The notes under the pieces: generated by a model
The model's database searches: none
What the model was told of the DNA's origin: nothing
Seen by the model: only the letters and a program-made list of their open reading frames with translations
Position numbers and translations under genes: made by a program
Shown here: in pieces, positions 4,147 through 16,069 of the stretch
How the letters are laid out: each line of letters begins with the position of its first letter
Numbering within the stretch: the stretch's first letter is position 1
NCBI GenBank assembly: GCA_964588075.1
Contig: CAZPNU010000027.1
Location: 1-29,238 of the forward strand
Source of the DNA: an uncultured Candidatus Cloacimonas sp.
GTDB taxonomy: Bacteria > Cloacimonadota > Cloacimonadia > Cloacimonadales > Cloacimonadaceae
Length of the DNA: 29,238 bases
Direction of reading: 5' to 3'

Positions 4147-7050
4147 TTGAACAAGATTGCTCCTATAACGGATTATCATGCAAAATACTATGCACTAGAG
4201 CTTAGCAGAAAGAGTGGTGCAGGTGTAGAAAGGGTTGGAAGAGCTTTGTTTGATGCCTGTGTTGACCTAAACCCCCATCAGATTGAAGCATCATTATTTA
4301 GCTTACGCTCTCCCATATCCAAAGGGGTTCTATTGGCTGATGAAGTTGGACTGGGGAAAACCATTGAAGCTGGCTTGACTATCTGTCAGTATTGGGCAGA
4401 GAAAAAGCGCAGAATCCTGATCATTTGCCCAGCATCCCTGAGAAAACAATGGGCTTTGGAACTTCAAGAAAAATTTAATCTCCCTGTGCAGGTGTTAGAT
4501 GCCAAAACTGCCAAAGACCTGGTGAAGAAAGGTCACGACAATCCTTTCGATACAAAGCATATAGTAATAGTTTCTATGCATTATGCTGGGCAGAACGCAG
4601 GATCAATCAAGCTGCTCCCCTGGGATTTAGTGGTAATTGATGAAGCCCACAAGCTGCGTAATGCTTACAGGCAAAGCAATAAACTGGGGCAAGAGATCAG
4701 GCGGGCAACCGAAGGAATCAAGAAGATACTGCTTACTGCCACTCCTCTGCAAAACTCTCTTACAGAGCTATACGGCCTCTCCACTCTGATTGATGAAAAC
4801 CTGTTTGGTGATTTACCTTCTTTCCGCAGCCAATACATGAATTCCGGTGGTAGCCTAAGCGATTTGAAAGAACGCTTACAGACCTTTTGTTGGAGAACCC
4901 TTCGCAGCCAAGTATTGGAATATGTAAAGTTTACAGAACGCAGACCCATCACCCGTCCTTTCACTCCTACCCAGCAAGAACATGATTTGTATATGGGTGT
5001 TTCTGAGTTCCTGAAAACAGAGGATAACTATGCCCTCCCACAAGGTCAGAAGCATCTGCTTATCCTACTGGTTCGCAAAGTACTGGCTTCATCACCTCAT
5101 GCTGTGGCAGGTACTCTGGAGATTATCAGAGACCGCTTAGTTAAACTGAGACAAAACTACCACAAGCAGCAAAGTGCCTTACAACAATTGATTATTGACG
5201 ACTACATCGATGATGACTTGTTAGATGAGCTTTTAGAAGATCAGGAAGACCTCGAAACTGAGACTGAGCCAGCTCCTTCACCTGAAGCAGATCAGCCTAA
5301 GAAACTCGACTTAACCAAATTAGACGCTGAAATAAAAGCCTTGAATGGCTACATAGACAATGCCAGAAGCTTCGGAGTGGATTCCAAGTCCAAAGCATTA
5401 CTTACTGCTTTAGATATAGGCTTTTCCCAAATGAAAAAAATGGGAGCAGCCCGCAAAGCAGTTGTATTCACAGAATCCAGACGCACCCAAGCCTGGCTCA
5501 AGGATTATCTGGAAATGAATGGCTATGCCGGAGAAGTGCTGACCTTCAATGGTTCCAATAAGGACGATGCTACAGGACAAATCTATGCTGAGTGGTTAGC
5601 AGAAAATCAAGCCAATGGCAGATCATCAGGTTCCAAACAGGTTGATTTACGCACAGCAATCATTGAACGCTTCAGAGATCAATCCAGCATCCTGATTGCC
5701 ACAGAAGCTGGTGCTGAAGGCTTAAACCTCCAATTCTGCTCCATGGTGATCAATTATGACCTACCTTGGAATCCACAGCGCATAGAGCAGAGGATTGGTC
5801 GCTGTCACCGTTACGGACAGAAGCACGATGTAGTGGTGATCAATTTCCTCAATGAACGTAATGAAGCAGACCAAAGAGTATATACAATCCTCTCAGAGAA
5901 GTTTCACTTATTCTCCGGTGTTTTTGGTGCTTCTGATGATGTTCTCGGCTCACTGGAATCAGGAGTTGATTTCGAACGGAAGGTGCTGGAGATTTATCAG
6001 CAATGCCGTACCGCGGAGGAAATTGCCACAGCTTTTAATAAACTTCAGAAAGAGCTGGAAGAGACGATCCAAACCCGCATGAAAGATACTCGCCGTAAGC
6101 TCTTGGAGCATTTTGATGAGGATGTTCATGAACGCCTCAAAGCAAACCATACCGATGCTGTAGAAGCCCTGGACAAGATAGGAAAGCTCTTCTGGCATTT
6201 AACGATGCACATCTTGAACAAGGAAGCATCCTTTGAAGAGAAAACCCATACATTCAGGCTAAAGAAAGCTCCCTGCAAAGGCAGCCGTCCGGGTACCTAT
6301 CGTCTGATCTCCAAAGACAGCGATAACTTCGGGAAAGAATTCCTATATCGGATGAGTCATCCCTTGGGTGAATACGTGCTGGAGCAAGGCAAAAAGAAAA
6401 CATGCCCTCCCGTAGAAGTGGTTTTTGACATCACCAAACACCCCACTCGAATTACTCTAATCGAACAATTGAAAGGGAATTGCGGATGGTTAAGGCTTGA
6501 TCTTCTTACCGTAAACTCTCTGGATACAGAGGAGTATCTGCTGTTTACGGCACTGGATGACGCAGGCAATAGCCTTGACCAGGAGACCTGCGAAAAGCTG
6601 TTCTTATGTAATGGCTTCGTCTCAGATCAATCTCTTGATATAATGCCTGAAGAATTAAACCTGAAAGATAATGCGGAAAGGCACGTAGAGGCTATTTTAG
6701 CCAAGAACCTGGAAGAGAATAACAAGCACTTCACCGAAGCCCGTGAACAACTGGAGAAATGGGCAGATGACATGGTAAAATCTGTCGAACGGGAATTGGA
6801 TGATATCAAAAGGCAGATTCGGGAAAAGCAGAGACTTTGCCGTCAAAGTCCTACTTTGAAGGAACAGCACGATTTACAGGAAGATATAGCCAAGCTGGAA
6901 AAGAAGAAACGCAAATTGCGTGAGAAGATATTTGATACAGAAGACCAGATTGCCGAAAAAAGGGATAAGCTGATCGATGCCCTTTCACACAGGCTTAAAC
7001 AAAAGACGAAAACTACAACCCTCTTCACCATCCGGTGGAAAGTAGTGTGA
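4147..7050 (+). CDS. SNF2-family (SF2) helicase/translocase with a long C-terminal accessory region ending in a coiled coil
   Basis: Motif I DEVGLGKT (aa 65-72, nt 4339-4362). Motif II DEAH (aa 165-168, nt 4639-4650). Motif III LLLTATPLQNSL. Helicase-C motifs ATEAGAEGLNLQ and PWNPQRIEQRIGRCHRYGQK. TTG start with GGGGA upstream. Confidence 0.9.
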   Translation: MNKIAPITDYHAKYYALELSRKSGAGVERVGRALFDACVDLNPHQIEASLFSLRSPISKGVLLADEVGLGKTIEAGLTICQYWAEKKRRILIICPASLRKQWALELQEKFNLPVQVLDAKTAKDLVKKGHDNPFDTKHIVIVSMHYAGQNAGSIKLLPWDLVVIDEAHKLRNAYRQSNKLGQEIRRATEGIKKILLTATPLQNSLTELYGLSTLIDENLFGDLPSFRSQYMNSGGSLSDLKERLQTFCWRTLRSQVLEYVKFTERRPITRPFTPTQQEHDLYMGVSEFLKTEDNYALPQGQKHLLILLVRKVLASSPHAVAGTLEIIRDRLVKLRQNYHKQQSALQQLIIDDYIDDDLLDELLEDQEDLETETEPAPSPEADQPKKLDLTKLDAEIKALNGYIDNARSFGVDSKSKALLTALDIGFSQMKKMGAARKAVVFTESRRTQAWLKDYLEMNGYAGEVLTFNGSNKDDATGQIYAEWLAENQANGRSSGSKQVDLRTAIIERFRDQSSILIATEAGAEGLNLQFCSMVINYDLPWNPQRIEQRIGRCHRYGQKHDVVVINFLNERNEADQRVYTILSEKFHLFSGVFGASDDVLGSLESGVDFERKVLEIYQQCRTAEEIATAFNKLQKELEETIQTRMKDTRRKLLEHFDEDVHERLKANHTDAVEALDKIGKLFWHLTMHILNKEASFEEKTHTFRLKKAPCKGSRPGTYRLISKDSDNFGKEFLYRMSHPLGEYVLEQGKKKTCPPVEVVFDITKHPTRITLIEQLKGNCGWLRLDLLTVNSLDTEEYLLFTALDDAGNSLDQETCEKLFLCNGFVSDQSLDIMPEELNLKDNAERHVEAILAKNLEENNKHFTEAREQLEKWADDMVKSVERELDDIKRQIREKQRLCRQSPTLKEQHDLQEDIAKLEKKKRKLREKIFDTEDQIAEKRDKLIDALSHRLKQKTKTTTLFTIRWKVV

Positions 7051-7057
7051 TGATATC

Positions 7058-15800: not shown

Positions 15801-16069
15801 TCTCAGAAGGAAAGCAATATGTTCACTTCATTGAACCTCACGGTCTGATGCATGAAGGTGTAAACAGCGAGAAAATCCAGTTCCACAAGCGCATCAAGGA
15901 GATTGAGACCAGGCTTGGCGATCCCAATGTGATCCTTAGTAGCTGGATATTGTCCTGGACTCCCAAACAAGAGCTAAAGCTCCGTGGGTATGATCCAGAC
16001 GAGTATCTGAAGAATAATGTGGTGTTTATGGAAGATGATGAGTACATCAACAATCTAATAAGGACATAG
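12842..16069 (+). CDS. Res-like SF2 helicase (Type III restriction Res family) with a C-terminal PD-ExK-like nuclease motif
   Basis: Motif I ATGSGKT (aa 172-178, nt 13355-13375). Motif II DEGH (aa 274-277, nt 13661-13672). Motif III YSATF. Then EGWD and motif VI QLFGRGVRL (from nt 14663). The C-terminus reads FHPDFILWI...VHFIEPHG (D981, E998, H1000). The start overlaps the previous stop as TAATG. Confidence 0.8.
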   Translation: MARKTSLQNHKFSNKLLLNQWLMSQFGIDPLLEYKDNTKPFHKLAAPIRDSRLEGYDADGLHRFYHELVNSELFYNEFHPISKEQLRIYEENIVSHTRTINYLRSRPIVWKYFQWLTLLFVEIYLDRYFTDKAKLLDDLNIYLKRFNEKWTGFQNLEPYSFDDLNKLCLQNATGSGKTLLMHVNLLQFRHYAKKTREGSEISRVILLSPNERLSEQHLEELKISGFYSAQRLKAKQDGSIDMVDVIEITKLGDTEGPNTIATRSLGDQNLLLVDEGHRGMSGKDEGVWFTRRSELCAKGFTFEYSATFAQAVAAANNRAFEDSYAKTVIFDYSYRWFYEDGFGKDYQILNLPKTYQQVQDVYLTACLLKYYQQLKVYEDKKLDIVPFNLEKPLWVFVGSTVTKKKGKQEVELPSEELLADVGQIIVFIAKFLSNAPVFQRSIEQILYGRGSSTGLLDYNGNDIFANSFNYLLKTVNTTNGTSEIYQDILRTLFNNPASGQLRLDRIKGDSGEVALYLGNSDTPFGLINVGDAKGLCDHVEEYAKHNDVQLTVDDSDFTEAMFASVKDSSSPINLLIGSKKFVEGWDCWRVSTMGLMHVGKSEGTQIIQLFGRGVRLKGYEWSLKRSGHTYATTKPGFIEDIETLNVFGIEADFMDKFRQFLRDEGLPGNEKRMVVTIPMNVTADFGKKLKIIRPKKKKDGTEYDFKKDGPVPTLGSIPQYLQNNPVVSDWYPRIQTIKSRGAQQDGQKDQVKLKSRQISLLDMDRLYFELERFKRERSWHNLNLSKQGIVSLLSDTSWYRLFLPETRLNPLNYDEVLILQQIATELVKRFCEKYYNFCKKAYIEPRLELRELTADDDNLPSDKEYQLIVDGDDIQVIEGIKKLKDEIIVKKDQLLQVGDLKACNFGNHLFQPLFHVRHGGNITILPVSLGDSEYQFITNLKEWCEKYQKDMKDKGQELYLLRNLSRGKGVGFFEAGNFHPDFILWILSEGKQYVHFIEPHGLMHEGVNSEKIQFHKRIKEIETRLGDPNVILSSWILSWTPKQELKLRGYDPDEYLKNNVVFMEDDEYINNLIRT

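Follow-up and report, generated by a model that had tools for sequence, protein, structure and literature searches.

A 29,238-nucleotide (nt) stretch of DNA from an uncultured Candidatus Cloacimonas sp. (contig CAZPNU010000027.1), analyzed here at its full length and called the window, carries at positions 4147-16069 a locus that we regard, with reasonable though far from complete confidence, as a three-gene core resembling the Type III restriction-modification (R-M) systems, in which two optional defence cassettes are embedded. The proposed core consists of a SNF2 ATPase, an oversized modification methyltransferase (Mod) and a restriction ATPase-nuclease (Res). Examination of the open reading frame (ORF) list and its translations reveals six intact ORFs, all on the + strand, with intergenic spacers of 42, 48 and 90 nt and two start/stop overlaps that were read directly from the sequence: ccATGAtc at 12168-12171, joining the ATPase stop to the DUF4276 start, and gcTAATGgc at 12840-12844, joining the DUF4276 stop to the res start. 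An earlier note on this DNA, prepared from the letters and an ORF list, had described these six tightly packed + strand genes with their gaps and overlaps, and all are as it quoted them. The genes, and the two domains that matter most in what follows, are:

4147-7050, + strand: SNF2 ATPase, TTG start, 967 amino acids (aa); first core gene
7093-7470, + strand: GxxExxY / PDDEXK_3 small nuclease, 125 aa; first embedded cargo
7519-10950, + strand: oversized Type III-like Mod, 1143 aa; second core gene
9319-10038, + strand: target recognition domain (TRD) of Mod, residues ~601-840, between motif IV and motif I
11041-12171, + strand: ABC-type ATPase (HEC-01A), 376 aa; second embedded cargo, first gene
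12168-12842, + strand: DUF4276, TOPRIM-like putative nuclease (HEC-01B), 224 aa; second embedded cargo, second gene
12842-16069, + strand: Res-like SF2 (superfamily 2) ATPase-nuclease, 1075 aa; third core gene
15614-15961, + strand: nuclease domain of Res, residues ~925-1040

The mechanically called ORF for DUF4276 begins at an ATG at 12108, upstream of the start listed above; position 12168 is preferred because homology begins at about residue 21 and the gene of the relatives abuts the ATPase stop. The motifs named in the earlier note were all recovered, including DPPYN before FGGSGTTG in Mod and ATGSGKT, DEGH, QLFGRGVRL and PDF...EPH in Res, and its domain guesses agree with the Pfam, NCBIfam and PADLOC matches: SNF2-rel_dom with Helicase_C, PDDEXK_3, N6_N4_Mtase, AAA_21/AAA_15, DUF4276 and ResIII. 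PADLOC calls throughout are matches to PADLOC protein hidden Markov models, protein by protein.

The large size of Mod, which that note had listed as non-canonical, and that of Res turn out to be the property of a large family: there are >8000 full-length database matches to Mod, and a scan of one genome per species found Mod relatives in 490 stretches, from which 80 loci with 10-kb flanks were kept. Both of our 80-locus samples are the best matches of longer lists and not censuses. Neighborhoods were compared by tblastn of the six window proteins against the 80 loci, with ORFs in the relatives called mechanically; 71 loci were informative for Mod-Res adjacency and 69 for SNF2-Mod adjacency. 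Res lies downstream of Mod in all 71, and SNF2 lies upstream of Mod in 53 of the 69, usually at a gap of 6-33 nt (median 33 nt). The loci span Cloacimonadota, Chlorobiota, Desulfobacterota, Planctomycetota, Verrucomicrobiota, Pseudomonadota and others; the nearest relatives of the window's locus are metagenome-assembled genomes (MAGs) of Cloacimonadota.

The Mod protein is composed of an N-terminal extension reaching to residue ~560, a methyltransferase (MTase) core and a C-terminal extension covering residues ~900-1143. Within the core, DPPY (572-575) precedes FGGSGTTG (844-851), the motif order of a beta-class N6-adenine MTase, and Pfam N6_N4_Mtase (PF01555) aligns with residues 566-879. PADLOC MTase_III PDLC03646 matches with 668 bits, as one of 15 PADLOC MTase_III models that do so. 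A profile of the family retrieves the solved Type III Mods 7dsu (Mbo45V), 6k0w (H. pylori) and 4zcf (EcoP15I) with E-values of 8e-40 to 5e-33, and a Foldseek search with the AlphaFold2 (AF2) model of Mod recovers 6k0w (1.6e-14), 4zcf (6e-12) and 7dsu (9e-11). The hmmsearch matches to these three structures span positions 493-885 only. Both extensions are conserved family-wide, and neither the ~560-aa N-terminal nor the ~240-aa C-terminal one has a Pfam match at E <= 5, a PDB-sequence match or a whole-chain Foldseek match. The N-terminal extension includes a hypervariable, acidic, low-complexity linker at residues 281-345 (window 8359-8553), with a column identity of 0.16 and a predicted local distance difference test score (pLDDT) below 50, whose length variation explains much of the 1046-1190-aa size range of the family.

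The TRD is hypervariable, its column identity of 0.49 comparing with 0.73-0.86 in the flanks. A related Mod (P0012) has 94% identity with that of the window in its N-terminal part and 96% in its C-terminal part, against 22% in the TRD. At the DNA level, positions ~9245-10228 of the window have no similarity to two close relatives (numbered L002 and L037 among our related loci) whose flanking sequences are 84-93% identical to the window's. In close relatives SNF2 and Res are 93-96% identical and Mod only 68-72%. Given that the TRD is swapped while SNF2 and Res stay conserved, it appears that Mod sets the specificity of the whole system, an argument likewise applied to MtsC and MtsD in the MANTIS system (10.64898/2026.09.23.753747).

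The Res protein is organized as an N-terminal region of unassigned fold (residues 1 to ~160), an SF2 motor and a C-terminal PD-(D/E)xK-type domain. Pfam ResIII matches residues 162-308 (5e-08), nothing credible being found in Pfam at E <= 5 for the N- and C-terminal parts, and PADLOC REase_III PDLC03654, a REBASE-derived model, matches with 600 bits. The motor contains GSGKT (174-178), DEGH (274-277), EGWD (583-586) and GRGVRL (611-616), and none of its Walker A, DEgH, EGWD and GRGVRL motifs varies among 56 sequences. The nuclease residues are E933, P980-D981-F982, E998-P999-H1000 and K1011; across the same 56 sequences E933, PDF, P999 and K1011 never vary, while at position 998 there are 49 sequences with E and 7 with D, and at position 1000 there are 50 with H and 6 with K. 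The main Res clade thus reads PD...E-P-H, and a divergent clade that includes the copy on an E. coli plasmid reads the classic PD...D-P-K. Residues 998-1000 correspond to window positions 15833-15841; the D-to-E and K-to-H changes mostly occur together, and the loci concerned include L081, L031, L072, L078 and L082.

In the AF2 model the nuclease domain has a predicted alpha-beta-beta-beta-alpha-beta core (pLDDT 70-86 there). Foldseek with the Res model gave nothing at E <= 0.001 and sub-threshold XisH/Cdn1 matches only; the XisH matches are PD-(D/E)xK-like and provide a hint of that fold in the model. A profile of canonical Res proteins, built from EcoP1I Res and six plasmid homologues, yields weak collinear matches (E ~0.01-0.2 per sequence) to nearly every member of the family in an unfiltered hmmsearch (--max). 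Two pairs of collinear segments stand out, the canonical sequence being given first: rEGWDNPNVF...rQevGRGLRl against VEGWDCWRVS...IQLFGRGVRL, and YnPDfalv... against FHPDFILW.... By these sequence criteria Res has the same architecture as Type III Res and probably a remote kinship with it, homology being demonstrated only to the level of the SF2 superfamily. The Type III-like core seen in the earlier note is upheld, with a Mod homologous to the solved Type III Mods and a Res of Type III architecture.

The third conserved protein, to judge from its profile matches, is a DrmD/RapA-like SNF2 (Swi2/Snf2) ATPase. Pfam detects SNF2-rel_dom (7.9e-35) and Helicase_C (1.9e-20), the motifs DEVGLGKT, DEAH, TATPLQN and QRIGRCHRYGQK are present, and 24 homologues show no variation in motifs I, II, III and VI. 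Its N-lobe aligns with E. coli RapA in hhalign at 99.9% probability and 35% identity (residues 8-226 against RapA 128-342). The C-terminal ~300 aa have nothing credible in Pfam at E <= 5 except coiled-coil noise, with a coiled coil at the end. The best matches in both PADLOC and NCBIfam are to DrmD: PADLOC DrmD PDLC02619 with 704 bits over residues 33-676 only, and NCBIfam DISARM_DrmD_b (NF038318) with 702 bits against a cut-off of 950, only residues 33-680 aligning; NF038317 reaches 299 bits against a cut-off of 610. The protein also matches PADLOC BrxHI/BrxHII (245 bits) and, over the motor only, HmaA (188 bits).

These matches bear on an explanation under which the locus would be an ordinary two-gene Type III R-M system standing next to an unrelated SNF2 gene, either the orphan DrmD of a decayed class 1 DISARM system or a single-gene defence. 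The DrmD matches favor it, as does the lack of SNF2 in 16 of the 69 informative loci, some with intact Mod and Res, and defence genes cluster in islands anyway. Nevertheless, the DrmD_b score falls below the cut-off with the motor alone aligning, no DrmA, DrmB or DrmC is found in the window, and the order SNF2-Mod-Res is fixed, with a median spacing of 33 nt, in 53 loci from many phyla. Furthermore, the distance matrices of SNF2 and Res correlate (r = 0.75, a value reached in 0 of 2000 permutations), and on a neighbor-joining tree of Res SNF2 occurs throughout the main Res clade and is lost in a few lineages.

The reverse test, in which metagenome contigs were scanned from the SNF2 side, returned full-length relatives at 38-61% identity, and in most loci examined a Mod/Res pair of long or ordinary size comes after them. 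It gave 14 complete loci with long Mod and long Res and 3 truncated contigs with long Mod. Another 25 loci examined are without the long Mod/Res and encode, downstream of SNF2, 23 N6_N4_Mtase and 23 ResIII proteins, 6 of the latter also matching the RE_endonuc domain; the sizes here are ordinary (Mod ~530-660 aa, Res ~890-1000 aa), and AAA_15/OLD-TOPRIM, AIPR, SIR2 and Schlafen cargo is interspersed in these operons. As relatives of SNF2 head Mod/Res pairs of ordinary size too, this SNF2 clade seems to supply a third gene to Type III operons in general and not just to the long family. We thus consider the unrelated-neighbor explanation unlikely, though it deserves some weight, and the earlier view of the SNF2 gene as foreign to canonical Type III R-M holds with the qualification that it is no chance neighbor.

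Comparable operons occur on plasmids. E. coli and Klebsiella IncF plasmids carry the arrangement HTH (helix-turn-helix)-SNF2-Mod(1046 aa)-Res(1120 aa), with a trio ~34% identical to that of the window and with Mod and Res matching PDLC03646 and PDLC03654 over their full length, and a Listeria plasmid has a different SNF2 protein (HKD+Snf2) ahead of an ordinary Mod/Res pair. The HTH-SNF2-Mod-Res set of E. coli pEC316_2 (NZ_CP018955.1, 29496-39248; L081, 2593-12345) is complete in only 2 of 5426 complete E. coli genomes and plasmid-borne in both. One piece of its mod gene, 298 bp long (query 8324-8621), has 99.7% identity with the listed plasmid segments annotated as DUF1158, and 167 of the 170 records matching this piece are at least 99% identical; it is probably a relic spread with a mobile element.

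The remaining three genes of the locus belong to families that are already catalogued as defence genes. The GxxExxY protein matches Pfam PDDEXK_3 (1.2e-42; 145 bits against a cut-off of 22) and scores above the curated cut-off of NCBIfam TIGR04256 (145.3 bits against 35), with an intact PD...ELK motif (KPDFVCFDKIIIELK). The ABC-type ATPase matches PADLOC HEC-01A PDLC04175 with 426 bits (residues 7-376 against model positions 4-362 of 363) and Pfam AAA_21, AAA_15 and SMC_N, its Walker A (GANGVGKS), signature and Walker B being intact. Its partner matches Pfam DUF4276 (7.1e-50, 170 bits) and, over the full length, PADLOC HEC-01B PDLC04188 (248 bits). Adjacent HEC-01A and HEC-01B genes nested between mod and res agree with the definition of HEC-01, where HEC denotes "Hma-embedded candidate" and HEC-01 an ABC ATPase with a TOPRIM-like partner nested in Hma systems (10.1101/2024.01.29.577857). 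The embedding of defence genes in multi-gene systems is documented (10.1101/2024.01.29.577857); the hosts reported so far are Hma, BREX, DISARM and Type I R-M.

Several considerations could nonetheless suggest a single hybrid system integrating all six genes, in which two translocases and an ABC ATPase would work with two or three nucleases, as the earlier note had proposed. The genes share one orientation and lie close together, with start/stop overlaps at two places. The full set of six recurs in L002, the nearest fully covered relative from the Cloacimonadota, and L003 has five, without GxxExxY; L001 and L004 are cut inside mod, so that the upstream genes lie outside view. Against this, a Cloacimonetes MAG (L037) retains the core at ~88-92% DNA identity (SNF2 92%, Res 87.5%) without either cassette, and with 6 nt separating the Mod stop from the Res start. 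The ABC/DUF4276 pair is present in 12 of 71 loci, its distant copies being 32-37% identical vs 50-65% for the core, and is scattered and polyphyletic on the neighbor-joining Res tree; GxxExxY is present in 9 of 80, in most of them between SNF2 and Mod but in L015 between Mod and Res.

Other loci fill these two slots with unrelated genes. The Mod-to-Res gap is <200 nt in 33 loci and >=900 nt in 32, and the 67 slot ORFs of >=100 aa, counted at both junctions and located mostly at Mod|Res, include: 1) ABC ATPases (14), RhuM (10), Fic (5) and PDDEXK_3 (5); 2) YhcG/DUF1016, 23S-rRNA-IVP, OLD-TOPRIM, PIN and Zeta toxin (2 each); 3) GmrSD, protein kinase, GIY-YIG and AAA_14/DUF4143 (1 each). Conversely, a conventional Type III operon on the Aeromonas veronii plasmid pHX3 (L086, 1-5545) has the pair nested between its genes for a 627-aa Mod and a canonical Res, and the pair is already a separate PADLOC candidate in Hma systems. 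Thus a single six-gene machine is very improbable, and on the comparative sequence evidence GxxExxY and the ABC/DUF4276 pair are optional, previously catalogued defence cassettes and not components of the system. What had been read as an ATPase coupled into the res gene, with two or three nuclease folds in one machine, is better described as embedding than as an integrated mechanism. Of the two kinds of sporadic neighbor that the earlier note had envisaged around an ordinary Mod-Res pair, gene-neighborhood conservation bears out the ABC/DUF4276 pair, along with PDDEXK_3, and not the SNF2 gene.

With regard to the individual cassettes, window positions 11009-11800, covering the 5' two-thirds of the ABC ATPase gene, have no DNA similarity to L002 and L004, which are otherwise 88-93% identical to the window; the ATPase proteins are 68-71% and the DUF4276 proteins 85-95% identical. 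The N-terminal, possibly sensing, part of HEC-01A hence appears from this comparison to be mosaic or diversifying. A Phaeobacter plasmid (L087, 1-5569) has a gene for a 551-aa "RNA-binding domain-containing protein" between mod and res of a Type III operon of conventional size. The SNF2|GxxExxY spacer (7059-7083) and the linker region of Mod (8389-8413) share a 25-nt near-repeat of 80% identity; this is probably due to chance, but could be a mark of the insertion history of the GxxExxY cassette.

Comparison with named systems places the core closest to Type III R-M as represented by EcoP1I and EcoP15I. Shared with these are the order mod then res; a beta-class N6-adenine Mod core with the TRD between motifs IV and I, supported by both sequence and fold homology; a Res in which an SF2 ATPase precedes a PD-(D/E)xK-type nuclease and the EGWD, GRGxRL and PD...ExK-like signatures keep their order; and specificity that resides in Mod. 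The PADLOC models call both Mod and Res Type III. The locus differs in that Mod is ~1100 aa, compared with ~610-650 aa, and carries two conserved extensions; in that Res is without profile-level homology to canonical Res and has His for the catalytic Lys in the main clade; and in that a third conserved gene, for the DrmD-like SNF2 protein, heads an operon that in Type III R-M has two genes.

It might instead be argued that the locus is an already named helicase-methylase-ATPase system, either class 1 DISARM or one of the BREX-related, Hma and MANTIS (Gao_RL) group. The SNF2 protein matches BrxHI/BrxHII and HmaA, the combination of two ATPases with a methylase resembles the logic of MANTIS, and HEC-01 was first defined inside Hma. 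As in class 1 DISARM, a DrmD-related SNF2 motor (~700 bits) lies directly upstream of an adenine methylase, and deletion of drmD+drmMI, or of drmABC, nearly abolishes protection of Serratia against phage Nami (10.1101/2021.12.28.474362). Hma combines a DUF499 ATPase, an N6-MTase and an SNF2-nuclease, and BREX type 3 and BR systems pair a methylase with an SNF2 helicase (PMC12839542). MANTIS consists of the DUF499 AAA+ protein MtsA, an N6-MTase, the DUF3870 protein MtsB and the PLD (phospholipase D)-helicase MtsD; MtsA is required for loading and turnover of the methylase, restriction depends on both ATPases, and the TRD of the MTase sets effector specificity, with asymmetric, hemimethylated sites (10.64898/2026.09.23.753747). 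With BR, Hma and MANTIS the locus has in common a site-specific adenine MTase, a helicase-nuclease effector and a second ATPase, as well as embedded defence genes.

However, the hallmarks of these systems are missing. No PLD, DUF1998, PglZ, BrxC or DUF499 was found in any window ORF scanned, and the HxKxxxxD motif is absent from all six proteins. Accordingly, the DrmA, DrmB (DUF1998) and DrmC (PLD) proteins of class 1 DISARM and the PglZ and BrxC of BREX are absent from the scanned ORFs, as the earlier note had maintained, and no PglX-type methylase of BREX was found in the window. Unlike DrmMI (pfam13659), the methylase is a PF01555 Mod-like protein with no DrmMI model match at E < 0.01, and the SNF2 protein stays below the DrmD_b cut-off with its C-terminal third unaligned. 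The suggestion that Hma may be the closest relative does not hold, as Hma needs a DUF499 protein. In contrast to BR, Hma and MANTIS, the second ATPase is SNF2 and not a DUF499 (or BrxC-type) AAA+, and there is no MtsB/DUF3870; the beta-class Type III Mod matches no PglX/HmaB model at E < 0.01, Res has no HmaC/MtsD-like match, and its effector nuclease is of PD-(D/E)xK type and not the PLD type of MANTIS. BrxHII and the BR helicases carry an N-terminal Tudor domain (PMC12839542), for which the SNF2 protein has no room because only ~30 residues precede its motor and its RapA alignment begins at residue 8. Membership of a named system thus seems scarcely credible.

Among further candidates, ARMADA is centered on a YprA helicase and was set aside as irrelevant, and Gao_RL/MANTIS, a four-gene system in which a methylase and a helicase-nuclease take part, was rejected because of its DUF499, DUF3870 and PLD components. 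Here and on the Aeromonas plasmid the host of HEC-01 is a Type III or Type III-like R-M system, as opposed to the Hma host in which it was described; its functional analogues are PARIS (AriA/AriB), OLD and Gabija. We found no paper naming or testing the SNF2-Mod-Res trio in a literature search that was incomplete, such that an earlier description is possible.

A number of observations weigh against the reading of the locus as a three-gene Type III-like core with embedded cassettes. With respect to Res, the main clade has His in the nuclease motif where the catalytic Lys would be expected; neither phmmer nor a profile search retrieves a PDB sequence for the family, even at E <= 1; and hhalign of Res against EcoP1I Res or the seven-sequence canonical profile aligns Walker A only, at a probability of 2-6%. 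Because profile-level homology is lacking, the Type III cleavage mechanism is an extrapolation from architecture and short motifs. With respect to SNF2, Mod and Res look intact in at least L013 and L046 among the loci that lack it, and it may therefore not be essential everywhere; other SNF2-less loci are decayed, with Mod split in L022 and L070. A divergent SNF2-less Mod/Res clade has other large proteins directly upstream, namely TPR proteins of 788-1027 aa and proteins of ~1100 aa with a weak, sub-threshold AAA_16 match. In an E. coli test, HEC-01 did not protect against phage (10.1101/2024.01.29.577857). Neither models nor Pfam explain the extensions of Mod, the N-terminus of Res or the C-terminus of SNF2, and the AF2 models, built from alignments of 35-38 sequences (pLDDT 59.6 for Res and 63.6 for Mod), are too poor for assigning domains to the extensions. 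Finally, every step of the mechanism considered below, from complex formation and hemimethylation to the mode of cleavage and the roles of SNF2 and cargo, is inferred.

The large upstream proteins of the SNF2-less clade may be alternative third partners or merely neighboring defence genes; the stretches concerned are L031 6003-9983, L078 3429-9986, L044 3598-10000 and L082 172-5117. One Mod of this divergent clade has an N-terminal DUF6575 fusion, and the Hymenobacter plasmid has a PDC-S68 RecD-like ATPase.

By analogy with EcoP15I, Mod would presumably recognize a short asymmetric site via its TRD, methylate one strand and recruit Res to unmethylated sites, which Res would presumably cut after ATP-dependent long-range communication. 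We propose that the SNF2 protein, as a translocase on double-stranded DNA, most likely loads or activates Mod or Mod-Res on DNA, or licenses restriction, since there are precedents for such roles in MtsA (MANTIS), in BrxC/BrxHII (BREX, BR) and in DrmD together with DrmMI (class 1 DISARM). The cassettes, GxxExxY in the SNF2|mod slot and HEC-01 in the mod|res slot, are probably co-transcribed but autonomous hitch-hikers that would form a separate layer of defence. The cassettes could possibly act as guards that fire when the R-M core is inhibited. In particular, the HEC-01 pair might protect the core from anti-restriction proteins, by analogy with PrrC, which guards in the EcoprrI locus, and with PARIS, which senses Ocr.

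The rest of the window is composed of housekeeping and related genes, coding for a beta-helix protein sorted by the type IX secretion system, an M23 peptidase, thiamine pyrophosphokinase, polyprenyl synthetase, dUTPase, NadA, an MFS transporter and a CDP-alcohol phosphatidyltransferase. On the 5' side of the locus, three tandem 48-nt repeats at 2910-3053, 83-100% identical, each contain a GC-rich inverted repeat (GGTGACGTC...GTCGCCAC), and just 3' of them lies an orphan 254-aa ORF (3149-3913) without a Pfam match. On the 3' side are a minus-strand AAA_14/DUF4143 ATPase gene (17094-18224), two tandem 32-nt repeats (18284-18347) and a tRNA-Lys(ttt)/Glu(ttc)/Glu(ctc) cluster (18740-19016). The surroundings of the locus show neither an integrase nor an att-like repeat, no direct repeats bracket it, and promoter and terminator scans performed no better than on shuffled sequence. 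The window's flanks are common to none of the related loci compared, and the operon therefore moves as a unit into different contexts.

As a set, the six genes are not categorically new, and the constant SNF2 partner is the only part that goes beyond current classifications; the interest of the locus lies in this conserved second motor and in the unexplained extensions of Mod. It also offers a natural example of cassettes embedded in a Type III operon at both the mod|res and the SNF2|mod junctions, extending guilt-by-embedding to a new host system. Current tools split such a locus into an "orphan DrmD", a "Type III R-M" and an "HEC-01", and a three-gene rule would cut many false partial-DISARM calls. 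More tentatively, as a conjecture that we hold at clearly less than even odds, SNF2-headed Type III or Type III-like operons might constitute an unnamed and widespread dual-ATPase class, in which SNF2 would be required for methylase loading and/or Res licensing, the long Mod/Res would be the most derived branch, and the gene junctions would serve as docking slots for guarding cassettes. Type III R-M is a two-subunit enzyme in textbooks. If SNF2 is a working subunit, then a large three-subunit branch of Type III systems has been overlooked in many phyla and on clinical Klebsiella and E. coli IncF plasmids, and it would link classical R-M to DISARM, BREX and MANTIS and provide a simple model for the role of the extra motor.

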